This document shows, in pieces, positions 1 through 14,500 of a stretch of 64,000 nt of DNA. The translations under genes and the position numbers were made by a program. Origin of the DNA: Escherichia coli (GTDB taxonomy: Bacteria; Pseudomonadota; Gammaproteobacteria; Enterobacterales; Enterobacteriaceae); the NCBI RefSeq assembly GCF_003334765.1, contig NZ_QOWT01000001.1; one strand, 5' to 3'. The stretch's first letter is position 1; the number at the start of each line of letters is the position of its first letter. Under the pieces are notes generated by a model, which had not been told where the DNA came from, did no database searches, and saw only the letters and a list, made by a program, of their open reading frames with translations.

Positions 1-577
1 CGAGAATGGCTTTCATCGAAGGAATGCGTGGCACGTTAATATCGGAGGTGACGCAGAGCACGGCTGGAACAGAGAGTTCAATAACTTCAACATCATCTTC
101 AAGCGTGCGTTCAATCACCAGTGTATTGCCCTGACGCTGAATAGCACTCACTGCATTAATCACCGGAAGTTGCAGAATTTCTCCGACCAGCAAGCCAACC
201 TGCTGGGCATAAAGGTCGCCGGAACCTTCACCAAAGATCAGTAAATCGAAGCCGATCTTTTCAATTGCTGCCGCCAGCGCTTTTGCGGTATCGAGAGGCA
301 GTGCATGTTCAAGTTGCGCATCCTGCACCAAATACAGGCTGTGCGGCCCGCGGGATAGCACGTCTTTGCGCACTTTCGAGTTCTGCAACAATGAGCCGCC
401 AACGGTCAGCGCGGCTATCTCATCGTCATCTGTTGCGAGCTGGCTTGCAGCTTCAATGGCATTGAGATCGAACTGGCTGATTTTGGCGTCGGCATTGTCG
501 AAATTCAGGGTGTATTCTGGAGTGACAACAATGTCCTGTTCTTCAGGCACCAGCTTAAAGCAGGTTATTATTTTCAT
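1..577 (-). CDS. ydiQ: Electron-transfer flavoprotein beta-subunit-like protein, N-terminal part only (gene runs off the window start)
   Basis: Minus-strand ATG at 575-577 with an AGGAG RBS just upstream; my translation gives [22 protein letters not shown]..., an EtfB-like N-terminus. Not in the ORF track because it is truncated. Confidence 0.8.
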
Positions 578-892
578 GATTTCTCCTGTGAGTCGCATAC
601 GGAACCATCTCCGATGGAAGGTAAAAATGGCCTGAAAATAGTGTGCGATAGCGGTGCGGGGTTTTCGACGGAGCAAGCTGTTTTCCTTGCCAACAATCTT
701 GCAAAAAAAATGCGATCGCTAAAACAAAAGTGCAATTTGCGGCAATATAGTTATTCCATGACCGTACAATCTTGCATTCAGTGTAAATAATCTTGTTTAG
801 CTCTCGCTAAACGCGGTTGTATAACCGCAATACACGCCGTATTTTATCCGGCATATATTGTTTTTGCTTGCTCATGGAATAGGGAGGTTGTC

Positions 893-1804
893 ATGTATCA
901 ACGCTGTTTTGATAACGCCAGTGAAACGCTGTTTGTCGCCGGTAAAACGCCACGGCTTTCACGTTTTGCATTTAGCGATGATCCAAAATGGGAGTCCGGA
1001 CATCACGTTCATGACAATGAAACCGAGTTGATTTACGTCAAGAAAGGGGTTGCAAGGTTTACCATCGATTCTTCGTTATATGTCGCACATGCGGATGACA
1101 TTGTGGTGATAGAACGCGGCAGGCTGCATGCGGTGGCCTCTGACGTTAACGATCCGGCAACGACGTGTACCTGTGCGCTGTACGGCTTTCAGTTTCAGGG
1201 GGCTGAGGAAAATCAGCTACTGCAACCGCATTCTTGTCCGGTAATTGCCGCGGGGCAGGGAAAAGAAGTCATAAAAACCTTATTTAATGAGCTAAGTGTG
1301 ATTTTGCCGCAAAGTAAAAATAGCCAAACATCTTCGTTATGGGATGCATTTGCCTATACGTTAGCCATTCTTTACTACGAAAATTTTAAAAATGCTTATC
1401 GTTCGGAGCAGGGGTATATTAAAAAAGATGTTCTGATAAAAGATATTCTTTTCTATCTGAATAATAATTATCGCGAAAAAATCACTTTAGAACAGTTATC
1501 GAAAAAATTTCGTGCCAGCGTCAGTTATATTTGCCATGAATTTACCAAAGAGTATCGTATTTCCCCTATTAACTATGTTATTCAACGGCGTATGACGGAA
1601 GCAAAATGGTCACTCACTAATACTGAATTATCACAGGCAGAGATCTCCTGGCGTGTGGGTTATGAAAATGTCGATCACTTTGCCAAACTGTTTTTGCGCC
1701 ATGTCGGTTGTTCGCCCAGCGATTACCGTAGACAATTTAAAAACTGTTTTGCGGAACAAGAAATCCTATCTGAATTTCCTCAACCGGTAAGTCTTGTTGG
1801 ATAA
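893..1804 (+). CDS. ydiP: AraC/XylS-family transcriptional regulator
   Basis: 303-aa ORF with a C-terminal AraC-type HTH region (…ISWRVGYENVDHFAKLFLRHVGCSPSDYRRQ); GGGAGG RBS before the ATG. Confidence 0.85.
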   Translation: MYQRCFDNASETLFVAGKTPRLSRFAFSDDPKWESGHHVHDNETELIYVKKGVARFTIDSSLYVAHADDIVVIERGRLHAVASDVNDPATTCTCALYGFQFQGAEENQLLQPHSCPVIAAGQGKEVIKTLFNELSVILPQSKNSQTSSLWDAFAYTLAILYYENFKNAYRSEQGYIKKDVLIKDILFYLNNNYREKITLEQLSKKFRASVSYICHEFTKEYRISPINYVIQRRMTEAKWSLTNTELSQAEISWRVGYENVDHFAKLFLRHVGCSPSDYRRQFKNCFAEQEILSEFPQPVSLVG

Positions 1805-1846
1805 ATCTGGCGGCGCAGTTTGTTAAGAAGCTGCGCCGCCTGCAGA

Positions 1847-2998
1847 TTATTTGTTCTGATAGTCTTTCAGGATCTGCCGACCTGCTACGTAAATCATAAT
1901 TTCGTCTGTACCGCCGCCGATACGTTCACAACGGACATCACGCCAGAAGCGGGAGACGCGCGCCTCATCGGTATAGCCCAGACCGCCCATGATTTGAATC
2001 GCATCATCAATGACTTCCATTGCGGTACGTGCACAGTACAGTTTTGCCAGCGCCGCGCTGGTGCGCAGTGACTGATGCTGATCGGCTTGCCATGCCACTT
2101 TCAGCACCATGTTGCGCATGTTGTCGATCTTAATCGCCATCAGCGCCAGTTTTTCCTGGATCATCTGGTTATGACCAATGGGCTTACCAAAAGCGATACG
2201 TTGGTTGGCATAGCGGGCGGCATCTTCAAAGGCGCATTCGGCAAAGCCGGTGCTGCGCGCGGCGTTGATCAGGCGCTCCATCTCAAAGTTGTACATCACA
2301 TTGAGGAAACCCATTCCTTCTTCGCCCACCATGTCGCTCTCTTCAACCTCCACGTTGTCGAGATAGACTTCGCAGGTGCTGAGCATATGCCAGCCGATTT
2401 TATGCAGCGGGTTAATCTTAATGCCGGGCTTACTGGAGTCGACCCACCACAGGGTGAAGGCTTTTTTGGGATCTTTCGGTTGCGGATCGCGCGCCAGCAC
2501 CAGCATATACGGGTACTCTTTCGCACCGGTAATAAAGGTTTTTTGTCCGTTGATGTAGACCTTGCCGTTTTTACGCGTGTAAGTGGTAGTGGCACTGTTG
2601 TTATCTGAGCCAGCACCTGGTTCCGTCAACGCCAGGGCATAGGCGGGATCACCCGTTTCCAGGGTGCTCTCTGCCGTTTTACGTAGCTGCTCTGCAGAAC
2701 CGAAACGGCGCATACTGTGAATACATTGACCGTTGGTAATTAAAAATGCCGGAGCACCGCATTTTGACACTTCCATCAGCGCCAGCATTTGGGTGACGTA
2801 ATCCGCAGGGATACCACCAAATTCTTCCGGCACGCCAAGCATGGAAATACCGTTATCCGCCAGCGCCCGCATAAACTCACGCGGATATGTCCCGTTTTGA
2901 TCGCAGGTGCGGAAATACTCTTCCGGAAAGTTAGTCGTAATCAGTTCGCGAATACTGGCCAGCAGCAGTTCTTGTTCTTCAGTTAAAGAAAAATCCAT
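1847..2998 (-). CDS. ydiO: Acyl-CoA dehydrogenase family protein
   Basis: ORF track gives 401 aa; the likely true start is the internal MDFSLTEEQELL… Met (383 aa). Acyl-CoA dehydrogenase-like sequence throughout. Confidence 0.85.
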   Translation of the reverse strand: MDFSLTEEQELLLASIRELITTNFPEEYFRTCDQNGTYPREFMRALADNGISMLGVPEEFGGIPADYVTQMLALMEVSKCGAPAFLITNGQCIHSMRRFGSAEQLRKTAESTLETGDPAYALALTEPGAGSDNNSATTTYTRKNGKVYINGQKTFITGAKEYPYMLVLARDPQPKDPKKAFTLWWVDSSKPGIKINPLHKIGWHMLSTCEVYLDNVEVEESDMVGEEGMGFLNVMYNFEMERLINAARSTGFAECAFEDAARYANQRIAFGKPIGHNQMIQEKLALMAIKIDNMRNMVLKVAWQADQHQSLRTSAALAKLYCARTAMEVIDDAIQIMGGLGYTDEARVSRFWRDVRCERIGGGTDEIMIYVAGRQILKDYQNK

Positions 2999-3011
2999 CA
3001 TTATACTCCTG

Positions 3012-4607
3012 TTAATGAGCCGCTTCAGGCAGGACAAAACCCATCGCCGCATCGATAAATAATCTTTCGTCCATCAGTTTGAGTTCTGGCGAAATCACTG
3101 GGGTGAAATCCATTTTGTCGAGAATATCTTTTTGTAAATCGACGCCAGGGGCGATTTCGATTAAATGCAGGCCGTCTTCTTTCAGCGTGAATACTGCGCG
3201 CTCAGTGATATAACGAACATCCAGCCCTCGCTCGAGAGCGATTTTTCCGCTGAAAGTAATTTCCGGTAGTTCCCGAATAAATTTCTTCACCCGTCCTTCC
3301 TGGACGATATTTAATTTGCCGTCGGTAATTTCTGTTTTTAAACTGCCCGCAGTTAATGTGCCGCAGAAAATGATTTTCTTCGAAGTGGCACTGATATCAA
3401 TAAATCCACCGGTGCCCATGATTTTACCATTGAATTTATGCACGCCGACGTTACCGTGCTGGTCGACTTCAGCAAAACTCAAATAACAAACATCCAGACC
3501 GCCACCGTGATAAAAATCAAACTGGGACGTCATATCCAGAATGGCACGGGTATTCACGTTCGCGCCAAAGGCGATCCCCTGTGAAGTAATTCCGCCAATC
3601 GGACCTGTTTCTACCGTCAGAATAAAGTCATCAGCACAACCTTCTTCTCGGGCGACCAGGCCAATGCCGTCAGCAATACCGACGCCGACATTCCCCACCG
3701 CGCCTTTACGCATTTCGAATAATGCGCGCCGCGCAACTAATTTACGTTGGTTTAGGGGCAGGCTAAGTTTGGTACTGTCATCAAGGGTGAAGTCACCAGA
3801 AATAAAGCGGTTAACCGGTGCACCGCCATACAGTTGGGTTTGATCCGGATCGACCACCACAATATCCACCAGATAACCCGGAATACGGACAGATTTAGGA
3901 TGCAGCGTGGCTTTCTTAACCATTTTCTGCACCTGCATCATCACAATACCGCCGTTATTGTGCACCGCCTGGGCAATAACCAATGCGTCGAGATACATCA
4001 CCTCATCTTCAAAAGTGGCGTAGCCTTCACTGTCGCAGGTGGTAGCGCGAATGAAGGCAATATCTGGCGCAATCGCTTTGTAATAGAGATATTCTTTGTT
4101 ATCAAACTCGACCAGTTTAATCAGGTCTTCTTTAGTGACTTCATTCAGTTTGCCGCCTTGCTGGCGTGGATCGACAAATGTCCCGATGCCAATATCACTA
4201 ATAATACCAGGCTGGTGGGCTGCGGCGGCGCGTAAGGTTTGTGTAAGTACACCTTGTGGGTAGTTATAAGCAATAATTTTATTTTGTTCTGCGAGTTCAG
4301 AAATACGCGGCGATTGTCCCCAGTGACCACATAATGCCCATTTCACCAGACCTTCTTGCGCCAGAGGACTAATACCACGGTCGGCGCGATCGCCAAGCCC
4401 TGTTGGACTAATAATCGATAAATTACGTGGTGTTTGAGTCTGTTTATATTTATCAGCAAGAGCAGTAATTAACGTGGTGGCTTCCAGAATACCGCCTCCA
4501 GCGCCTAACACACAAAGTGTTGCTTCGTCGGGAATATAATTCACCGCTTCCTGTGCCGACAGGACCGGCACTCGTCCATTAATACGAGGTGGTTTTACAG
4601 GTTTCAT
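3012..4607 (-). CDS. ydiF: Family I CoA-transferase (acetate/short-chain acyl-CoA transferase, fused alpha/beta)
   Basis: 531-aa ORF that I recognise as E. coli YdiF; immediately upstream of ydiO on the same strand. Confidence 0.85.
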   Translation of the reverse strand: MKPVKPPRINGRVPVLSAQEAVNYIPDEATLCVLGAGGGILEATTLITALADKYKQTQTPRNLSIISPTGLGDRADRGISPLAQEGLVKWALCGHWGQSPRISELAEQNKIIAYNYPQGVLTQTLRAAAAHQPGIISDIGIGTFVDPRQQGGKLNEVTKEDLIKLVEFDNKEYLYYKAIAPDIAFIRATTCDSEGYATFEDEVMYLDALVIAQAVHNNGGIVMMQVQKMVKKATLHPKSVRIPGYLVDIVVVDPDQTQLYGGAPVNRFISGDFTLDDSTKLSLPLNQRKLVARRALFEMRKGAVGNVGVGIADGIGLVAREEGCADDFILTVETGPIGGITSQGIAFGANVNTRAILDMTSQFDFYHGGGLDVCYLSFAEVDQHGNVGVHKFNGKIMGTGGFIDISATSKKIIFCGTLTAGSLKTEITDGKLNIVQEGRVKKFIRELPEITFSGKIALERGLDVRYITERAVFTLKEDGLHLIEIAPGVDLQKDILDKMDFTPVISPELKLMDERLFIDAAMGFVLPEAAH

Positions 4608-4749
4608 TGTTAATTCCTGATTCAGATGTGATTTTCCCTACGCCAAATGGAGAATTAGCGCACAGAGACTCACGAAATATTTTTATTAAATACGATTGAA
4701 TATATTTTTTAGTTCGGCGGGGAGGGTGTTCCCGCCGAAATATTATTGC

Positions 4750-5508
4750 TTATGCCTGGTGTAAAATAGTTAATACCGTGCGCAAATCATTTACCGAGAT
4801 TTGCCCTGGCGCAGACGCTTTTTTTACCGCACCAAAAGTTGCCGCCGAGCCAAATACTTCACCAGCCAGACGAGAAATTACGCCAGTTTTTGCCATCGAC
4901 ATCGTGATAATTGGACGATCGGCATACTGCTCCTGCATCTCCAGGGTCGCGGCAAGCAACGTCAGCACATCGCTGGTACTTTGCGGCATCAGCGCAATCT
5001 TAGGAATATCGGCGTCGAAGGATTGCATTTTGCGCAGACGGGCAATGATTTCTTCGGCTTCCGGCGTTTTATGGAAGTCATGGTTGGACATGACTACTTT
5101 CACATCATGCGCGTGGGCGTAGGCGACGGTTTCTTTAACCTGATCATCACCGGTAAATAACTCCAGATCGATCATATCAACCAGGCCGCTGTCGATGGCT
5201 GCACGATTGAGTGCAATATAAGCCTCGGTGGAAATCGCCTGCTCGCCGCCTTCTTTGGCACTGCGGAAGGTAAACAGCAGCGGTTTTTCTGGCATGGTCT
5301 CACGGAGAATTTTTGCTGCCGCCATGACAGACTCCACATTGGAGAGGTCGGCATAGTGGTCCACACGCCATTCCAGAATATCAAAGTCCGCTTCACGATA
5401 GGCGAGAGCTTCGGATTTCACGCTGGCGATATCTTTCGCCATCAGCGAGACGATGATTTTAGGTGCGCCCGTACCAATGACGAGATCTTTTACAGTTACG
5501 GTTTTCAT
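4750..5508 (-). CDS. aroD: 3-dehydroquinate dehydratase, type I
   Basis: 252-aa ORF ([30 protein letters not shown]…) matching AroD. Confidence 0.92.
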
Positions 5509-5538
5509 TTTTTACCCTTTCTGCACGCGGTCAGCCTG

Positions 5539-6405
5539 TCAGGCACCGAACCCCATGACCTGTTTAACATATTCCAGAGGGAAATCTTTGCCAGTCCATA
5601 ATGTGAACTGTTCAGCCCCTTGCCACAACAACATGCCGTATCCATCAATCGTTTTGCAACCAGCTTGTTGCGCCTGCTGCAATAACTTCGTCATATGCGG
5701 GTTATACACGCATTCAGTGACCAGAAGTCCCGGATGTAACAGACTGATATCATTAACCAATGATTCATTCTCAAGGGGTTTCATACCCACTTTTGTGCCA
5801 TTGGTTAAAATGTCGGCGGAAGCCAGGGCTTCAGCAAAGGCTTGCTGATCGGCGAGATCGGTGACCGTGACGACACAATCGGTGTTTTCATTAACCCGCT
5901 GCGCGAAGGCGAGGGCTTTATCGAAGAACTCATCCCGACGGTTAAAGAGTTTAATTTCTTTTAAACCTTCAATTGCCCCCTGCGCGCCAATTGCCGTTGA
6001 GGCACCACCGGCCCCTAACAGCACCATCGTTTTGCCTTTGATATCAAAACCGCTCTCTTTAATGGCGCGAATATGGCCCGTGCCGTCGGTGTTATAGCCA
6101 CGCAGATAGCCATCATCATTAACGATGGTGTTGATGGCCCCCACCAGTTTGGCAGCTGGTGTTAATTCATCAACATATTCACACGCCAGTTGTTTGTTCG
6201 GCATCGATACACCAGTTCCGCGCATTTTGAGGGCTTTTAATCCTTCAATTGCTCCAGGAAAGCTATCGTTATCCACTTCGAAGGCCATATAGGTAAATGG
6301 CAATCCCGCTTTTTCTAAGGCTTTATTCTGCATTTCGGGCGATAAACTGTGGCGGATAGGATAGGCCATCAACCCAATCAATTCGTATTTTGCGGTAACA
6401 TCCAT
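5539..6405 (-). CDS. ydiB: Quinate/shikimate 5-dehydrogenase, NAD(P)-dependent
   Basis: 288-aa ORF ([31 protein letters not shown]…), an AroE paralogue, directly upstream of aroD. Confidence 0.9.
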
Positions 6406-6416
6406 AATTAACTCCT

Positions 6417-7682
6417 TTAACCTCTATGCTTAATTGTGTTTAACCGGGTGCAAAATTTACGCTCGCCAAACCGCACATCATTTTCAGGAATAATGAAAAC
6501 GCGGTAATAGCGGATAAAAACAATAATTGCGGTAATCAGGGCCAGCAGCGCGAAAGTAAAATCGAGAACAATGATATATTGCAGGCCGATGTTCGACAGA
6601 TAACCGGTAATCAGTGGAATAACAAAGTTAGCCAGTCCACCCATCATCATATAAATACTGGTGACTTTGGCTTTGCTTTTGGGAAAAAACTCTGACATGA
6701 CCGAAACGCCGAGCTGTAAAATGCCGCCAGCTGCTGAGAAACCGATAACAAAGGCTCCGGCATTGCACACCAGTGGAGAAGGGTACAGGTAGATAATGGC
6801 TGCTGTTATTGTTGCCAGTGCAGAGTTAAATACATTAGCCCAGATGGGCCGGACCATTTTTTTCAGTAGTGCGGCAAAAATAAAGACACAGACCAACGAG
6901 CCCATACTGTAATAAGAGATGGTTTTTAATGCCTCAGCTTCTGACATACCAGCAAAAGCCATCGCATATTTGGGCATCCACACCACAATCACATAAAAGG
7001 TCGAGAATGCGGCTACACCGAACAGTACCGATGAAACACCTTCCAGCCAGACTAACGGTTTGCTGTTCATTTGCGGTAATTCATTAGTTACGCTGGCGTC
7101 CACCAACTGGCTGGGGAATTTGCTTTTCAACAGCATCAGCGTGATCAGTACAAATAGAATACCCGGAATAATCAGCCCATAGCCGTACCAGATATTATTG
7201 AGCAACATATAGCTCACCAGCATTGGGTAGAACATTTGCCCAAATGACACCATCGCTTTAACCAGTATGACCGCCGAACCAGAGGCTTTCGGAAAGCATT
7301 CCATGAGCGCGGGGTAGCCACCCGTATCCAGCGCTGAGTTAGCGATACCTACGCACACTGCCAGACCGTAGGCGAGAGTTAAATTCGGGCAAGCGGGAAT
7401 ACCAAAGAAGAATAGCAGATACATTATTACTGCCATTAATATCACCGCCCGACGACCAAACTTATCGGAGATCACACCGAAGAATAAAATACTGATCAAT
7501 CGCCCCAAACCGATACCGGAAATTAAGTAGGCAATGCCCGCGTTGTCAGTGGAAAACTTTTCCGCCAGAGATGACATATTTTGGGCAAGCGTAATAACAC
7601 TAATGCCGTGCAGGAAGTAGCTGAAGTAAATACAAAGAACAGCCAGGATAAATGGCGTGCTGAAAGCCTTATTTTGAGACAT
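6417..7682 (-). CDS. ydiN: MFS transporter
   Basis: Polytopic membrane ORF. The track start at 7688 is a GTG; an ATG at 7680-7682 gives MSQNKAF… (421 aa), which I take as the start. Confidence 0.8.
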
Positions 7683-7908
7683 TTTCACAGCTCCTTGCTG
7701 AAAGATAATTTCGTTACCGTACGTATTGTTCTCCGACGGTTTACATAATTACTATACTGAAGATGATTTTCCCTGGGTACATGGCATAAAGTTTATGTTT
7801 CCAGGAATATTGCATGTCATAGTTTGTTTTTGATCGCGATTTTCCTTAGTTAGCGCAGAAAGAGTTATTTATCCGTAAGATCTTGCATGACCTGAAAAGA
7901 ATATTGCA

Positions 7909-9123
7909 TTACCCACCCGGAGCGACATTTTCCTTTAGCGAGTGATGCCGCGTTTTTTTGCGGCTGCGTAAGCCGATAAACAGTGCCAGTAAAAAACCGA
8001 TGGCAGCGATGGCGGTATCGAACCACATAATATCGGCAATACTTCTTTGGGACAGATGAGCCGTAATCAACGGAATAGTAAAGGTCGCAATACTGCCCGC
8101 ACTGTAATAGATCCCTGTAGCTTTACCTTTAGCGTAAGGGAAACGTTCAGCCATTAACGTCAGGCCAATTTGCACAACACCTCCAGCAGAGGTAAAACCA
8201 ATGACAAAAGCAAATATTATCACCACATAAAATGTGGGATGCAGGCAGACGGTAAACAGAGCAATAAATGAGATAAAGGTGTACAGCATCAGTAATGTTG
8301 TTGGGCGAACGGTATTACGAATGAGTGGAGCGGTAATAAATACACAAAGCAGCGAACCCACGGTGTAGATACTGAGTAGTTTGATCGACATAGTGTATGA
8401 CATGCCTGCAACAAATTGTCCGTACTGTGCCAGCCACTGGCTAACCAGATAAAACGTTGCCATTGAGATATAGCCATATAAGGTATAACTGGCTAAATCG
8501 ATAATTGAACAGCGATGTTCCGTAGAGCTGGTGGTTTTCTTTATGACAGGTAAGCGACGACCCGGATGGGGTGGGAACGTACAACGGTATAAAAACAGAG
8601 CGTTAATAAACATAATGCCTGCAGCAATCATAAAGGACCAACCGAACCACAGTTCAGCCCACACTAACAGGCTAATGATTAGCGGTAATAAAAATTGTCC
8701 GCTGGAAACAAATGCTTTAATTAAAATATTGGCTGTCCCAGGTGAGCGTGGAAAAGCTTCCATCAAACTGGGATAAGTGCCTGCATCGAGAAAACTGTTT
8801 GCCATTCCCGCCAGAAAGCCAAAAACATAAGCGATAATGATGTTATTGGTCTGCAGGATGCCAAAAAAGAAGGCCATATAGCAGCACATCCCGAGCATGA
8901 TAAAAGGGCGGCGACCAAAGCGATCGGATAATAATCCTGCAAAAAGCAAGACACTTAATCGACCAATGCCCAGCGATGAGATAACTATCGAGACACCCGC
9001 GGCATTAGTCTGCCAAAGTGTCTCCAGCGAGGCCATATTCAGGCTCATCAAAAGGACGCCCATACCATGCACCAGGTAATTAAAATACAACCCAAGTGCG
9101 GTAGGGAAATAGGGATTTTTCAT
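7909..9123 (-). CDS. ydiM: MFS transporter
   Basis: 404-aa hydrophobic ORF, paralogous to ydiN. Confidence 0.8.
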   Translation of the reverse strand: MKNPYFPTALGLYFNYLVHGMGVLLMSLNMASLETLWQTNAAGVSIVISSLGIGRLSVLLFAGLLSDRFGRRPFIMLGMCCYMAFFFGILQTNNIIIAYVFGFLAGMANSFLDAGTYPSLMEAFPRSPGTANILIKAFVSSGQFLLPLIISLLVWAELWFGWSFMIAAGIMFINALFLYRCTFPPHPGRRLPVIKKTTSSTEHRCSIIDLASYTLYGYISMATFYLVSQWLAQYGQFVAGMSYTMSIKLLSIYTVGSLLCVFITAPLIRNTVRPTTLLMLYTFISFIALFTVCLHPTFYVVIIFAFVIGFTSAGGVVQIGLTLMAERFPYAKGKATGIYYSAGSIATFTIPLITAHLSQRSIADIMWFDTAIAAIGFLLALFIGLRSRKKTRHHSLKENVAPGG

Positions 9124-9222
9124 AGGTTCTACTTAGCAAAGGTGCTTTAAAAAGTGAAGCGATGTTGTGTCAGCATCCGTTCATTATTGTTGTAACAACG
9201 ACAATTCCTTTCTGTGGAAAAA

Positions 9223-9579
9223 TTAACAAAGCCGCTCCAGATCGTGTGCATATAATTCAGCAGCTACCGATTGATAGATCTTCCAGTCAATAAAATTGCC
9301 ATCAGGGTAGACTCGTTGAAATGCGGTTAAGTCGGGGAAAAAACGCATGGTGTTGTTGCCGATGCGGTTATTTATTTTCTCTATGATGGCATGAAGATGT
9401 TTTTTTCTTTGCTGACGCATAGCCAACAGTTGCTCGACTACACGATCAGGAATGGCACACTTGCCATTTTCCCACTGACGCCAGCTTTCACTGTCACCGG
9501 TCTGGGCAATCCAGGTCGCGCATTCATCAATAGTCATGGCAAAAATATGGCGGAGTGCCTGGAGTTCATAAGCGTTCAT
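9223..9579 (-). CDS. ydiL: Small protein of unknown function
   Basis: 127-aa ORF in the track; the internal Met giving MNAYELQALRHIF… (118 aa) is the likely start. Confidence 0.7.
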   Translation of the reverse strand: MNAYELQALRHIFAMTIDECATWIAQTGDSESWRQWENGKCAIPDRVVEQLLAMRQQRKKHLHAIIEKINNRIGNNTMRFFPDLTAFQRVYPDGNFIDWKIYQSVAAELYAHDLERLC

Positions 9580-9717
9580 CGTGTAATGGCTGCATGAAAT
9601 AAACAATAAAATATAAATAACATTATCAGCCTGCTGACGGCTTGAAGAGAGTCACAGTATCTTGTGCAACATTATTGGAAAGAGTGAGGGGCGAGGTAGC
9701 GAAGCGGAAAAATGTTA

Positions 9718-9822
9718 AAAAAAAGCCCATCGTGGGAGATGGGCAAAGACTACACACAGCAATTCGTTGTTTCACTCAGGGGATTTCCATGCTTATAAAT
9801 CAATATGTTGATTTATAACCGT
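9718..9822 (-). ncRNA. rprA: RprA small regulatory RNA (Hfq-dependent activator of rpoS translation)
   Basis: Plus strand reads AAAAAAAAGCCCATCGTGGGAGATGGGCAAAGACTACACACAGCAATTCGTTGTTTCACTCAGGGGATTTCCATGCTTATAAATCAATATGTTGATTTATAACCGT, the reverse complement of the RprA sequence as I remember it, including the terminator hairpin and U-tail. Confidence 0.8.
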
Positions 9823-10007
9823 GAGCTAATAGTAGGCATACGGACTTTTTGCGTCGATCAGATTCGTCTCATTAGTTTAAAAACTGTAAAGAATTTGCGA
9901 CAGGTACTACCAGCTGAATGGCGGTAAGCAGGAAAATATGGGGAAGAGCAAGCAAATATCAATTAGCGGTGGTTAACAATCAGGCGGCAGAGCCGCCTGA
10001 TGAGAAA

Positions 10008-11120
10008 TTACTTATTCGGTTTCTCGATTTCGCCAAGTTCTTCGAGAATTTCTTCCGGTTGGTCCGTCGGCGGCGGGACTTCTTCCACCCACGCGGCAAA
10101 CAGACGCCAGGAAACGGCTAACAGAACCGGACCAATAAACAGACCGATCATCCCGAAAGCAATCAAACCACCAATAACGCCAGAGAGAATCAGGATCAGC
10201 GGTAAATCGGCACCCATGCGAATTAACATTGGGCGGATGACGTTATCCAGCGTGCCAACCACACCGCTCCACACTAACAATACCGTTCCCCAGGTGGTAT
10301 CGCCAGTCCAGTAGAGCCAGATAATCGCCGGAATCAGTACCGGCAACGGGCCAAGCTGGACAAGGCAGGAGAGGATCATTAACACCGTTAGCAACGTTGC
10401 ATAAGGTACGCCGGATACGGCGAGGCCGATACCGCCAAGCACTGCCTGTACTAACGCCGTCACCACCACACCCAGCGCCACCGCGCGGATAGCCTGTGCC
10501 GCCAGCAGCACGGCGGCATCTCCGCGAACGCCTGCCAGACGGGTTGCAAAATGGCGAATGCCTTGTGCCACCTGTTCACCGCGCCAGTACAGCAGGGCAC
10601 TGAAGAGAAGCATCAGCGCACAATGCACCATAAAGCGCCCGATATGCGCCGCCTGCCCAACGAACCAGGTGGTGGTGGTGCCAATATAAGGGCGGACTTT
10701 CGCCATGATCGCCGTCCCCCCCATATCCAGCAAGTTGTGCCAGCCTGCATACAGCTTCGCGCCAATCACCGGAATGGTATTAAGCCACGCCAGATCGGGT
10801 AACGTCATGTCACCGCTGGAAATGGCTTTAATTAGCGGGCCGCTGCCGTCGACGATACTGTTAACCAGCAAAGCAATAGGGATGATAAACACCATCACTA
10901 ATAACAGCGTCATCACCAGAACGGCGAGAGAGCGGCGGCCAAACATGATCTTTTGCAAACGTAACAATACCGGCCAGGTGGCGATAACCACCGTACCGGC
11001 CCATGCAAAGCCGAGAATAAAGGGTTGAACAATCCACAGACATGCCACAATCATGATGGCTAAAAACAGCACCGAAAGCAGAATTTGTGCGACATCCCTG
11101 GGCTGACGAACATTTACCAT
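10008..11120 (-). CDS. ydiK: AI-2E/UPF0118-family membrane transporter
   Basis: 370-aa polytopic membrane ORF. Confidence 0.8.
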   Translation of the reverse strand: MVNVRQPRDVAQILLSVLFLAIMIVACLWIVQPFILGFAWAGTVVIATWPVLLRLQKIMFGRRSLAVLVMTLLLVMVFIIPIALLVNSIVDGSGPLIKAISSGDMTLPDLAWLNTIPVIGAKLYAGWHNLLDMGGTAIMAKVRPYIGTTTTWFVGQAAHIGRFMVHCALMLLFSALLYWRGEQVAQGIRHFATRLAGVRGDAAVLLAAQAIRAVALGVVVTALVQAVLGGIGLAVSGVPYATLLTVLMILSCLVQLGPLPVLIPAIIWLYWTGDTTWGTVLLVWSGVVGTLDNVIRPMLIRMGADLPLILILSGVIGGLIAFGMIGLFIGPVLLAVSWRLFAAWVEEVPPPTDQPEEILEELGEIEKPNK

Positions 11121-11508
11121 AACTACTTTTCACCTTTTTTGTGCGTCAAATCGTCGACGCGACGTGAACACGCGAAACTCACCTGCATAATGATGAGCAA
11201 TTTCAGCGGTTTTTAACAGGCCGATTCTGCCCTTAATTCTGATGGGCGTGTTAGAAAAAAATGTGGTACAACAACTCAGGCAACACGCAAACGATTTACT
11301 CGTCGTATTTCAAGTTGCATGTGCTGCGGCTACGTTCGTTCACCCCAGTCACTTACTATTGTAAGCTCCTGGAGTTCACTCGCTTGCCGCCTTCCTGCAA
11401 CACGAAATCCATAGAGTAAACAAACATCACCTTTCAGTGCGCTATTGCAGCAGCCTGAAAGAATAGTGTATCGACCTACATCACAGACCGCAGGAAAGGG
11501 TCAATATA

Positions 11509-14500
11509 ATGATTCCACAGATTTCCCAGGCACCCGGCGTCGTTCAACTGGTGCTTAATTTTTTGCAAGAGCTGGAGCAACAAGGTTTTACCGGCGATAC
11601 GGCGACAAGTTATGCCGATCGTCTGACAATGTCGACCGACAACAGTATTTACCAACTTCTCCCCGATGCGGTGGTATTTCCGCGTTCAACCGCAGATGTG
11701 GCGCTGATCGCCCGTCTTGCCGCGCAGGAACGCTATTCATCGCTGATCTTTACCCCCCGCGGCGGCGGCACCGGCACTAACGGTCAGGCGCTCAACCAGG
11801 GGATTATTGTTGATATGTCCCGCCATATGAACCGCATCATCGAAATTAACCCTGAAGAGGGCTGGGTGCGCGTTGAGGCCGGGGTGATAAAAGATCAACT
11901 CAATCAGTACCTGAAACCGTTCGGCTACTTTTTTGCGCCGGAACTTTCGACCAGCAACCGGGCAACGCTCGGTGGGATGATCAATACCGATGCATCCGGT
12001 CAGGGATCGCTGGTCTATGGCAAAACGTCAGATCACGTACTTGGCGTACGCGCGGTGTTGTTGGGGGGCGATATTCTCGATACGCAACCTTTACCCGTCG
12101 AATTGGCGGAAACGCTGGGTAAATCCAATACCACAATCGGGCGAATTTATAACACGGTTTATCAACGTTGCCGTCAGCAACGCCAGTTAATTATCGACAA
12201 CTTCCCCAAACTTAACCGCTTTCTTACCGGTTACGATCTGCGTCATGTCTTTAACGATGAGATGACCGAGTTCGACCTGACGCGCATTCTGACGGGTTCA
12301 GAAGGGACGCTGGCCTTTATTACCGAAGCGCGGCTGGATATTACACGCTTGCCTAAAGTGCGCCGTCTGGTGAACGTCAAATATGACTCTTTTGACTCTG
12401 CGCTGCGTAACGCGCCGTTTATGGTTGAGGCGCGGGCGCTTTCGGTAGAGACGGTGGACTCAAAAGTGCTGAATCTGGCGCGGGAAGATATTGTCTGGCA
12501 TTCCGTCAGCGAGTTGATTACCGATGTGCCTGACCAAGAGATGCTCGGGCTGAACATTGTGGAATTTGCTGGTGATGATGAGGCGCTGATTGATGAGCGG
12601 GTAAATGCACTCTGTGCGCGGTTGGATGAGCTGATCGCCAGTCATCAAGCAGGTGTCATCGGCTGGCAGGTGTGCCGTGAGCTGGCGGGGGTTGAACGTA
12701 TCTATGCAATGCGCAAAAAAGCCGTTGGTCTGCTTGGCAATGCCAAAGGTGCCGCTAAGCCAATTCCGTTTGCTGAGGATACCTGCGTACCGCCGGAACA
12801 CCTGGCGGATTATATTGCTGAATTTCGCGCGCTGCTCGACAGCCACGGCTTAAGCTACGGTATGTTCGGTCACGTCGACGCAGGTGTCTTGCACGTCCGT
12901 CCAGCGCTGGATATGTGCGATCCTCAACAAGAGATTTTGATGAAGCAAATCTCTGATGACGTGGTGGCGCTGACTGCGAAATACGGTGGTTTGTTGTGGG
13001 GCGAGCACGGCAAAGGTTTTCGCGCTGAATACAGCCCGGCGTTTTTCGGTGAGGAACTTTTTGCAGAACTGCGCAAAGTGAAAGCGGCATTTGACCCGCA
13101 TAACCGACTCAACCCAGGGAAGATTTGCCCGCCAGAAGGTCTCGATGCGCCGATGATGAAAGTGGACGCGGTGAAGCGCGGTACATTCGATCGGCAGATC
13201 CCCATTGCGGTACGCCAGCAGTGGCGCGGTGCGATGGAGTGTAACGGCAACGGTTTATGCTTCAACTTTGATGCCCGTAGTCCGATGTGTCCGTCGATGA
13301 AGATCACCCAGAACCGGATTCATTCACCGAAAGGGCGCGCAACGCTGGTGCGTGAATGGCTGCGTTTGTTGGCGGATCGCGGCGTTGATCCACTCAAACT
13401 GGAACAAGAACTGCCTGAATCCGGCGTCAGTTTGCGGACGTTAATTGCCCGCACGCGCAATAGCTGGCATGCGAATAAAGGCGAATATGACTTCTCACAC
13501 GAAGTCAAAGAGGCGATGTCGGGCTGTCTGGCCTGTAAAGCGTGTTCGACCCAGTGCCCCATCAAAATTGATGTGCCGGAGTTTCGCTCTCGTTTTCTGC
13601 AGCTCTATCACACCCGTTATTTACGCCCGCTGCGCGACCACCTCGTCGCTACGGTCGAGAGCTACGCGCCGCTGATGGCACGCGCGCCGAAAACCTTTAA
13701 CTTCTTCATTAACCAGCCGCTGGTGCGCAAACTCTCGGAAAAACATATCGGCATGGTTGATTTGCCGCTGCTGTCGGTCCCCTCGCTACAACAACAAATG
13801 GTGGGGCATCGCTCGGCAAACATGACGCTGGAACAGCTTGAATCTCTCAATGCAGAGCAGAAAGCGCGCACAGTGTTGGTGGTGCAGGACCCCTTTACCA
13901 GCTATTACGATGCGCAAGTGGTGGCGGATTTTGTCCGTCTGGTCGAAAAATTAGGTTTCCAGCCTGTGTTACTGCCATTTTCGCCAAATGGCAAAGCCCA
14001 GCATATTAAAGGTTTTCTTAATCGTTTTGCGAAGACGGCGAAAAAGACGGCGGATTTCCTCAACCGTATGGCGAAGCTGGGTATGCCAATGGTGGGCGTC
14101 GATCCGGCGCTGGTACTTTGTTATCGCGATGAATATAAACTGGCGCTGGGCGAGGAGCGTGGCGAGTTTAACGTCTTACTGGCGAATGAATGGCTGGCAA
14201 GCGCACTTGAGTCACAGCCAGTGGCTACAGTCAGCGGTGAATCATGGTATTTCTTTGGTCACTGTACCGAAGTTACCGCCTTGCCGGGTGCGCCAGCACA
14301 ATGGGCCGCGATATTTGCCCATTTTGGCGCGAAACTGGAAAATGTCAGCGTGGGTTGCTGCGGCATGGCAGGGACTTACGGACATGAAGCGAAAAACCAT
14401 GAAAATTCGCTCGGGATCTATGAGTTATCCTGGCATCAGGCTATGCAGCGACTGCCGCGTAACCGCTGTCTGGCGACCGGATATTCCTGCCGTAGCCAGG

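Follow-up and report, generated by a model that had tools for sequence, protein, structure and literature searches.

The 64,000-nt stretch of Escherichia coli DNA analysed here (hereafter the window) begins inside the ydi locus, where genes for the handling of quinate and shikimate lie beside genes of coenzyme A (CoA) and electron-transfer flavoprotein (Etf) metabolism. Positions 1-12000 match E. coli K-12 MG1655 (NZ_CP032667 2102404-2114403) with 100% identity, and the gene order is that of the ordinary, annotated and already known E. coli ydi locus. On the minus strand, a first block consists of ydiN (6417-7682; a major facilitator superfamily (MFS) transporter by NCBIfam and a proposed importer of hydroaromatic acids), ydiB (5539-6405; NAD(P)-dependent quinate/shikimate dehydrogenase, NF009390, 670 bits) and aroD (4750-5508; the biosynthetic type I 3-dehydroquinate dehydratase, TIGR01093, 292 bits), so that dehydrogenase, dehydroquinase and transporter are present as a trio. 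The same strand continues with ydiF (3012-4607; a fused family-I CoA-transferase, PF01144, by NCBIfam) and ydiO (1847-2998; a CaiA-like acyl-CoA dehydrogenase, NF008997, 787 bits). The plus-strand gene ydiP (893-1804; NCBIfam) encodes an AraC/XylS-type regulator with a C-terminal double helix-turn-helix and an N-terminal cupin ligand domain, and is divergent from ydiQ (1-577, minus strand), which encodes an Etf beta-like subunit (NF008998, 388 bits) and is cut by the window start after residues 1-192 of 254. The second-best NCBIfam match of YdiQ is FixA, with 265 bits to the FixA subfamily model (cut-off 219). According to the MG1655 annotation, ydiQ opens the ydiQRST-fadK series, with ydiR, ydiS, ydiT and fadK continuing to the left just beyond the window.

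The adjacency of these genes, reported in a preliminary description of the window, is borne out by the identity to MG1655 and by the independent NCBIfam assignments. Two details of that description need correction: the acyl-CoA genes do not flank the shikimate genes but all lie on one side of them, and ydiP, rather than separating the two blocks, belongs to the interior of the acyl-CoA block, with ydiQ and ydiO on either side. The open reading frame list and the annotation show no additional gene in the interval from ydiM to fadK. A hydratase, a thiolase, a ring-cleaving hydrolase and a dehydroshikimate dehydratase are lacking among the cluster genes, all reading frames of which are assigned to other families.

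Three boxes, in a common order, orientation and spacing, can be aligned one by one between the upstream regions of ydiN and ydiQ. Before ydiQ, box 3 (TGCAAGATTGTTGGCAAGGAAAAC; 680-703, minus strand) ends 103 nt ahead of the ATG and is conserved in 12 loci of the Enterobacterales type, while boxes 1-2 (CAAGATTATTTACACTGAATGCAAGAT; 769-795, minus strand), recognised by alignment, carry two CAAGAT cores 21 nt apart and adjoin the divergent ydiP. Before ydiN, box 3 (TGCAATATTCCTGGAAACATAAAC; 7791-7814, minus strand; alignment and weight matrix) ends 109 nt ahead of the ATG and is accompanied by boxes 1-2 (CAATATTCTTTTCAGGTCATGCAAGAT; 7880-7906, minus strand; alignment and dyad search). The pattern of boxes 1-2 reads CAAGATTATTT-N8-TGCAAGAT at ydiQ and CAATATTCTTT-N8-TGCAAGAT at ydiN, in both cases about 195 nt before the ATG. 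The three-box operator is conserved over the 12 loci, which represent at least six genera.

Since the box patterns were read off the E. coli ydiN/ydiQ pair, the test across genomes is the informative one. For this, a weight matrix was trained solely on the sites upstream of ydiQ in other genomes, and each 21-kb locus was scanned with it. The top non-self match for box 3 lies upstream of ydiN, in the right orientation, in 12/12 loci, and that for boxes 1-2 in 10/12, against a chance of about 1.6% per locus for a top match at this place. In public metagenomes, where the box-3 pattern was found in at least 120 stretches, the E. coli ydiN site recurs at least 49 times and the ydiQ site at least 15 times. 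The other matches listed are non-recurrent and lie on unrelated contigs; no third recurrent site of the E. coli type is among the matches listed, which therefore points to a local rather than a global regulon. In place of the independent regulation of the two blocks, a possibility raised in the preliminary description, a conserved operator common to both is thus observed.

A further line of evidence comes from a dyad derived from Firmicutes and not from E. coli, CAAGAT-N15-CAAGAT. With at most one mismatch it has exactly two matches in the 64-kb window, where 0.36 are expected, and these lie upstream of ydiQ and upstream of ydiN. A Firmicutes matrix of the single box was also tried as cross-phylum evidence and discarded, being unspecific in the window, where E. 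coli box 1 ranks merely sixth. What appears to be common across phyla is the core, the 21-nt dyad and the position beside a regulator gene, and the claim is kept to this modest extent. Two other identities of box 3 were rejected: a sigma-54 promoter, judged by eye, as the GG-to-GC spacing is 17 and not 12, and a TyrR box, as TTTACA is not conserved in other genera.

The candidate for the protein acting at these boxes is YdiP. Over 279 amino acids, including the cupin ligand domain, it is 38% identical to an AraC protein encoded divergently from a YdiF operon in Anaerostipes. Direct repeats of CA[AG]GAT[AT]NTT were searched in the intergenic regions between AraC and YdiF genes of nine Firmicutes loci and are present in eight of them, all oriented towards the operon; three loci have identical repeat offsets (+21 and +63, plus +43 where a fourth box occurs). 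The motif is found at 20 sites in 2.2 kb of this intergenic DNA vs 8 in 160 kb elsewhere. Boxes and ydiP orthologues hence co-occur in two phyla, and we infer that YdiP-type regulators bind CAAGAT boxes. In E. coli, YdiP, with a putative effector, is the probable regulator of a ydi regulon through the CAAGAT-type boxes before ydiN and ydiQ.

A second regulator, FNR, binds at ydiP/ydiQ in vivo, as seen by chromatin immunoprecipitation on microarrays (ChIP-chip). An FNR-like site inside ydiP (TTGATTTACGTCAA; 1028-1041, no strand assigned) matches the site proposed for this peak. The FNR consensus is hardly enriched in the window (46 matches vs 36 expected), hence only this ChIP-supported site is considered.

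The 7.9-kb stretch harbouring the genes is represented in all 5426 complete E. coli genomes, with at least 80% of it covered in 5285. The arrangement belongs to the E. coli core genome, and the adjacency of the genes is not due to chance. For a wider comparison, 80 genomic loci around YdiF relatives were fetched, one genome per species, and the E. coli ydi proteins were mapped onto them. The order ydiN-ydiB-aroD-ydiF-ydiO, followed by ydiP and ydiQRST-fadK, is kept in all long-enough contigs of the about 40 Enterobacterales loci among them (Escherichia, Citrobacter, Kosakonia, Serratia, Brenneria, Yersinia, and Symbiopectobacterium). fadK, encoding an AMP-forming ligase, follows ydiT in MG1655 and in those Enterobacterales and Sutterella loci whose contigs reach that far.

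Both blocks are also present in two Betaproteobacteria, Sutterella seckii and S. wadsworthensis (the latter represented by strain DSM 14016), with a YdiF 82-83% identical to that of E. coli, a value that points to horizontal transfer. The Sutterella proteins are 59-84% identical to their E. coli counterparts, except for YdiR (43-52%). Here, fadK-ydiTSRQ run leftward and ydiN-ydiB-aroD-ydiF-ydiO rightward from one intergenic region of about 1.4 kb, and ydiF and ydiO are the last genes of the ydiN operon; ydiP was not found near these divergent operons in the fetched loci of either species. The arrangement indicates that both blocks moved together into Sutterella and were then rearranged into a pair of divergent operons.

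Several individual loci deviate from the common pattern. A 21.8-kb contig labelled Martelella alba, an alphaproteobacterium (L030), bears a complete ydi locus of the Enterobacterales type with an 87% identical YdiF, reflecting either contamination or mis-binning, or a recent transfer. In E. coli 50EVAW (H50; NZ_CP138407.1 1201588-1202863), only aroD and part of ydiB are left (query 4592-5867) and the flanks are lost, as expected if aroD alone is indispensable. In E. coli E69 (L032; CP089930.1 4272504-4283920), ydiF begins at codon 60 at the locus edge, and no ydiO, ydiP or ydiQ occurs within the following 10 kb of the fetched stretch, which suggests a rearranged locus. A gut-metagenome contig (L002), 99.5% identical to S. 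wadsworthensis DSM 14016, has lost 1.59 kb, aroD included, so that the 5' part of ydiB runs directly into ydiF at codon 120; the resulting reading frame (P0055, L002:1721-3676) had been considered as a designed fusion of Shikimate_dh_N and CoA_trans domains, a view rejected in favour of this deletion, and the contig represents a natural knock-out of the cluster. In Yersinia (L026:5209-6111), a gene for a LysR-type regulator of 300 amino acids lies between ydiM and ydiN, divergent from ydiN; it is also found in Serratia, Brenneria and Symbiopectobacterium and is absent from the Escherichia, Citrobacter and Kosakonia loci.

Outside the Proteobacteria, relatives of YdiF (57-65% identical) were sampled in 40 loci of Firmicutes and Actinomycetes, 24 of which extend for 4 kb or more to either side. 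Dehydroquinase genes occur in 22 of these 40 loci, and in 17 of the 24. With one to three dehydroquinase genes per genome, we estimate that about 1% of genes would have one within 10 kb by chance. Most of the loci share an operon that combines YdiF with a MaoC-type hydratase, an oxidoreductase of the ketopantoate reductase (KPR) family, a small VOC-fold protein and AroQ (YdiF-MaoC-KPR-VOC-AroQ), the latter being a type II 3-dehydroquinate dehydratase above the curated AroQ cut-offs. As the dehydroquinases of types I and II share no homology, it is the reaction, and not one inherited neighbour, to which the YdiF clade is tied, and this linkage extends across three phyla. YdiB-like genes are found in 6 and YdiP-like AraC genes in 10 of the 40 loci. 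Three loci (an Anaerostipes metagenome-assembled genome, Megasphaera paucivorans, and an uncultured bacterium) combine YdiB, AroD of type I, an AraC gene and an MFS transporter in one neighbourhood. In nine Actinomycete loci an acyl-CoA dehydrogenase gene adjoins ydiF. The co-occurrence of the two gene sets across genomes, to which the preliminary description had looked, is hence seen in Enterobacterales, Sutterella, Firmicutes, and Actinomycetes.

The Firmicutes and Actinomycete operon deserves attention of its own. At L063:8749-13954 it comprises an MFS or TRAP transporter, a YdiF-like transferase, MaoC, KPR, VOC and a type II dehydroquinase, frequently with a divergent YdiP-like AraC gene, and operons of this kind are also found in L041, L045, L049-L053, L056-L060, L062, L065, L067, and L068, and further in L072, L077, L080, and L081. 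To judge from its genes, it appears to encode a separate, hitherto undescribed pathway for hydroaromatic compounds that depends on CoA. In M. paucivorans, a BaiCD/OYE-type Fe-S flavoenzyme of the enoate or dienoyl-CoA reductase family (L067:18050-20110) adjoins the YdiB-MFS-AroD-AraC block, and the YdiF operon stands directly behind a shikimate-biosynthesis operon (DAHP synthase, aroA). Anaerostipes-like genomes show a conserved palindrome, GATAGC-N5-GCTATC, upstream of a YdiB-MFS-AroD-TRAP block (L063:1381-1590 and L056:2262-2465), beside which a divergent open reading frame of about 300 amino acids is located; this block appears to be under a second control.

Within the E. coli locus, the junction between the blocks is the 142-nt gap between aroD and ydiF. 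A GC-rich hairpin (4713-4739, minus strand; -17.4 kcal/mol, z -3.1) directly follows the aroD stop codon, and its stem is kept in Escherichia, Citrobacter and Kosakonia, with differing sequence. Downstream of it on the sense strand comes CTAAAAAATAT, an A-run and no U-tract, which sets it apart from a classical terminator. On these grounds, transcription may plausibly continue from the ydiN and aroD promoters into ydiFO. The operon and 3'-end supplements searched (SMRT-Cappable-seq, Conway 2014, Adams 2021) have no usable entries for these genes. Upstream of ydiF, an AT-rich palindrome, GAATATTT-N5/6-AAATATTC, occurs in E. whittamii, Citrobacter amalonaticus and Kosakonia (L004, L010, L015, L018) and is degenerate in E. 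coli K-12 (window 4640-4700); it is possibly an operator through which a further factor acts on ydiFO.

YdiO is the enzyme on which the chemistry of any joint route would hinge. It scores 452 bits on the CaiA model, below the cut-off of 540 bits, and is thus a paralogue and not CaiA itself. The next cluster representative, presumably CaiA, is 53% identical, followed by relatives at 46%. The nearest relatives (CaiA, P0249, P0250) are encoded in modules with an acyl-CoA dehydrogenase, a CoA-transferase, an AMP-forming ligase and EtfAB, sometimes joined by a FixC-like protein; the modules of P0249 and P0250 carry a CoA_transf_3 enzyme, unlike the family I YdiF. This layout is that of the reductive CoA loops for carnitine/crotonobetaine (Cai/Fix) and caffeate (Car). 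The NCBIfam matches of YdiO to cyclohexanecarboxyl-CoA dehydrogenases (141-186 bits) were discarded as evidence, being weaker than that to acryloyl-CoA reductase and not discriminating.

Taken together, the quinate/shikimate block and the acyl-CoA block are very probably functionally linked. The best explanation, which we regard as a serious possibility still short of a probable one, is that the eleven genes ydiN-ydiB-aroD-ydiF-ydiO, ydiP and ydiQRST-fadK constitute one regulon for the anaerobic use of plant hydroaromatic acids. YdiN would import quinate or shikimate, and YdiB and AroD would convert quinate via 3-dehydroquinate and 3-dehydroshikimate to shikimate. Shikimate and 3-dehydroshikimate are 1-ene-1-carboxylates, and their CoA esters are therefore enoyl-CoAs, i.e. 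alpha,beta-unsaturated thioesters. FadK is proposed to prime the first acyl-CoA, after which YdiF would transfer CoA from the product to fresh substrate. YdiO may then reduce the C1=C2 double bond of the ring in shikimoyl-CoA or 3-dehydroshikimoyl-CoA, the putative CoA substrates, with electrons delivered via the FixABCX-like YdiQR/YdiST. The predicted product is 3,4,5-trihydroxycyclohexane-1-carboxylate (hydroshikimate), and the acid would serve as an electron sink, like crotonobetaine in Cai/Fix. The exact chemistry of this ring reduction is put forward tentatively.

The preliminary description had speculated on one CoA-dependent catabolic route for the hydroaromatic and acyl-CoA genes. The idea of a common CoA-dependent route gains substantial support from synteny, co-occurrence and operator. 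The term catabolic is unsupported in E. coli, whose cluster encodes no hydratase, thiolase, ring-cleaving hydrolase or dehydroshikimate dehydratase, and for this organism it is probably wrong. The likeness to the Cai/Fix and Car loops makes an electron-sink role likelier than the use as a carbon source. Extended to other organisms, it is possible, if tentative, that E. coli and its relatives, and Sutterella by way of transfer, respire dietary quinate and shikimate by a YdiP-controlled CoA/Etf ring reductase, and that gut and soil Firmicutes and Actinomycetes possess a related YdiF-MaoC-KPR-VOC-AroQ pathway.

Published data touch on the proposed regulon at several points. ydiN, ydiB and aroD are co-upregulated in a shikimate-producing strain, for which YdiN was proposed to move hydroaromatic by-products, and transporters of the YdiM/YdiN type are linked phylogenomically to ydiB and aroD. 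Klebsiella is reported to lack ydiN, and none of the 120 best YdiF matches, many of them nameless, bears the name Klebsiella. In a shikimate-accumulating aroK aroL strain, ydiQ, ydiR, ydiS and ydiT are among the about 50 most differentially expressed genes (20-32 fold), and the lists of this strain also contain ydiF (7 fold) and ydiB (3-5 fold), neither reaching significance. Little et al. report that S. wadsworthensis gains in growth from shikimate, the enoate of which it reduces to hydroshikimate, and assigned no enzyme to this activity in that species; their strain was DFI.4.78, and the ydi cluster is seen in DSM 14016. The searched literature yielded no paper naming three of ydiF, ydiO, ydiB and ydiN together and none joining the two blocks, a broader search giving plant or dehydroshikimate papers only. 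Comparative and regulatory sequence support for the link was likewise not found there; the gene order itself is known.

A number of observations weigh against the proposed regulon. The evidence that connects the blocks is sequence evidence. No box precedes ydiF in the aroD-ydiF gap, and, given this and the stable hairpin, co-transcription of ydiFO with ydiN-aroD is putative. In vitro, YdiF and FadK act on acyl chains of short and medium length. In the Firmicutes operons, a MaoC hydratase and a KPR-like reductase stand in place of the acyl-CoA dehydrogenase and Etf, so the downstream chemistry there differs. In published work, ydiFO, ydiQRST and fadK are listed as genes of anaerobic fatty-acid beta-oxidation. 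By chromatin immunoprecipitation with exonuclease trimming (ChIP-exo) in aerobic glucose medium with no added effector, YdiP gave no peak at the ydi locus and weak sites elsewhere (sdhC, uxaB, secG, cspA), and another study assigns it to cold-shock genes. The aroK aroL dataset is suggestive only, as it has no wild-type control and the direction of change is ambiguous. A further complication is that S. wadsworthensis possesses numerous flavin reductases, the enzyme class to which the Eggerthella lenta shikimate reductase belongs.

The assignment to fatty-acid metabolism leads to the conventional view that the blocks are unrelated neighbours, with ydiN-ydiB-aroD balancing the shikimate pathway and ydiFO-ydiQRST-fadK serving the anaerobic metabolism of short- and medium-chain fatty acids. 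The literature assigns the genes in this way, and the view accommodates that aroD is essential as a biosynthetic gene and has an expression of its own, that hairpin and gap part aroD from ydiF, and that YdiF is promiscuous, being named in abstracts of papers on lysine lactylation. The hydratase/dehydrogenase and thiolase functions of beta-oxidation are placed at fadIJ, elsewhere on the chromosome, and by annotation and NCBIfam are not encoded in the ydi locus. YdiF makes lactyl-CoA. Unexplained by unrelated neighbours are the same three-box operator before ydiN and ydiQ in 12 loci of at least six genera, the joint transfer to Sutterella with rearrangement around one divergent control region, and, in other phyla, the recurrent association of YdiF relatives with a YdiP orthologue and with a dehydroquinase of the non-homologous type; the conventional view is considered unlikely. 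A linked yet different role would be played if the CoA/acyl-CoA dehydrogenase/Etf set reduced hydroxycinnamates (caffeate, cinnamate) while YdiN, YdiB and AroD took the quinate, the two halves of chlorogenic acid being met by co-regulated genes as they arrive together. The shared operator is compatible with this, every item of the part list has its counterpart in CarA, CarB, CarC or CarDE, and an E. coli isolate has been described that reduces trans-cinnamate to 3-phenylpropionate by an unidentified enzyme. The Firmicutes and Actinomycete YdiF operons, though, contain a dehydroquinase and no cinnamate-related genes, which ties the transferase to the hydroaromatic ring; moreover, the cluster has no esterase, and MG1655 is described as not hydrolysing chlorogenate. 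A division of labour between the halves of chlorogenate is thus quite improbable.

All evidence for linkage fits equally well with blocks that are connected and work in the opposite direction, YdiO being oxidative or the route truly catabolic. A reduced cyclohexane carboxylate from gut bacteria, e.g. hydroshikimate, or the hydroaromatic acid itself would be CoA-activated and oxidised by YdiO; electrons would pass via Etf and YdiS to quinone, and the product would enter salvage by the shikimate pathway or ring opening by enzymes encoded elsewhere. YdiS is of the Etf-quinone-oxidoreductase type, the usual partner of oxidatively working dehydrogenases, the hydratase and the dehydrogenase-like reductase of the Firmicutes operons recall ring opening by beta-oxidation, and aroD and ydiB feed a biosynthetic pathway. 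Speaking for reduction, genes for a hydratase, a thiolase or a ring hydrolase are missing from the E. coli cluster, CaiA as the closest characterised relative of YdiO is a reductase in vivo and the relatives sit in ligase-primed CoA-loop modules, and the cluster-bearing Sutterella reduces shikimate. An oxidative or catabolic direction therefore seems unlikely as well.

If the proposed reductive regulon is correct, about ten poorly understood E. coli genes would receive a function, and the label of anaerobic beta-oxidation for ydiFO and ydiQRST would describe a side activity; ydiF, ydiO, ydiP, ydiQRST and ydiN are still without a convincing physiological role. Quinate and shikimate are plentiful in plant food, e.g. 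by way of chlorogenic acid. That gut microbes reduce them to cyclohexane carboxylates, from which the host makes hippurate, has been known for decades with no gene assigned in Proteobacteria. YdiO and YdiQRST are also used in engineered reverse beta-oxidation with mixed success, for which the natural substrate and electron path would be helpful. The operator offers a simple experimental handle, with two promoters and one candidate regulator.

Among known systems, the ydi genes most closely resemble caiTABCDE/fixABCX of E. coli. Both comprise a CaiA-type acyl-CoA dehydrogenase, which in Cai works as an enoyl-CoA reductase, a CoA-recycling CoA-transferase with a priming AMP-forming ligase (fadK in ydi), and a dedicated FixABCX-type set of Etf, Etf-quinone oxidoreductase and ferredoxin (YdiQRST). 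Both are laid out as two adjacent operons, and the anaerobic use of an electron sink is proposed for ydi as well. They differ in the transferase, which belongs to family I (PF01144) in ydi and to family III (CaiB-type) in Cai, and in the carrier, an MFS transporter replacing the betaine carrier. In addition, ydi has no crotonase (CaiD), possesses YdiB and AroD as a front end preparing the enoate, and has an AraC-type regulator instead of CaiF, with a substrate that is putative. In caffeate respiration, CarABCDE of Acetobacterium woodii likewise forms a CoA loop of transferase, ligase, acyl-CoA dehydrogenase-type reductase and EtfAB, whose substrate for reduction is an alpha,beta-unsaturated acid of plant origin. 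The organism and the proposed substrate class are different, E. coli adds YdiS and YdiT, and the likeness is one of part lists.

With the flavin-dependent shikimate reductase of E. lenta (Little et al.), the ydi system would share the predicted net reaction, shikimate + 2[H] to 3,4,5-trihydroxycyclohexanecarboxylate, and the setting of anaerobic respiration in the gut. That enzyme is a flavin reductase resembling fumarate reductase that acts on the free acid with no CoA involved, whereas the ydi system would use the CoA ester. As in the aerobic qui/qsu/qa clusters, quinate/shikimate dehydrogenase, dehydroquinase and transporter are encoded together; these clusters lead through a dehydroshikimate dehydratase to protocatechuate and the beta-ketoadipate pathway, whereas ydi has no such dehydratase and contains CoA and Etf genes instead. 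CoA-bound reductive processing of the shikimate ring with acyl-CoA dehydrogenase-like and CoA-activating enzymes is also found in the route from shikimate to cyclohexanecarboxyl-CoA of Streptomyces collinus and Alicyclobacillus, which differs in being biosynthetic, in running through several dehydrations and reductions, and in its enzyme families.

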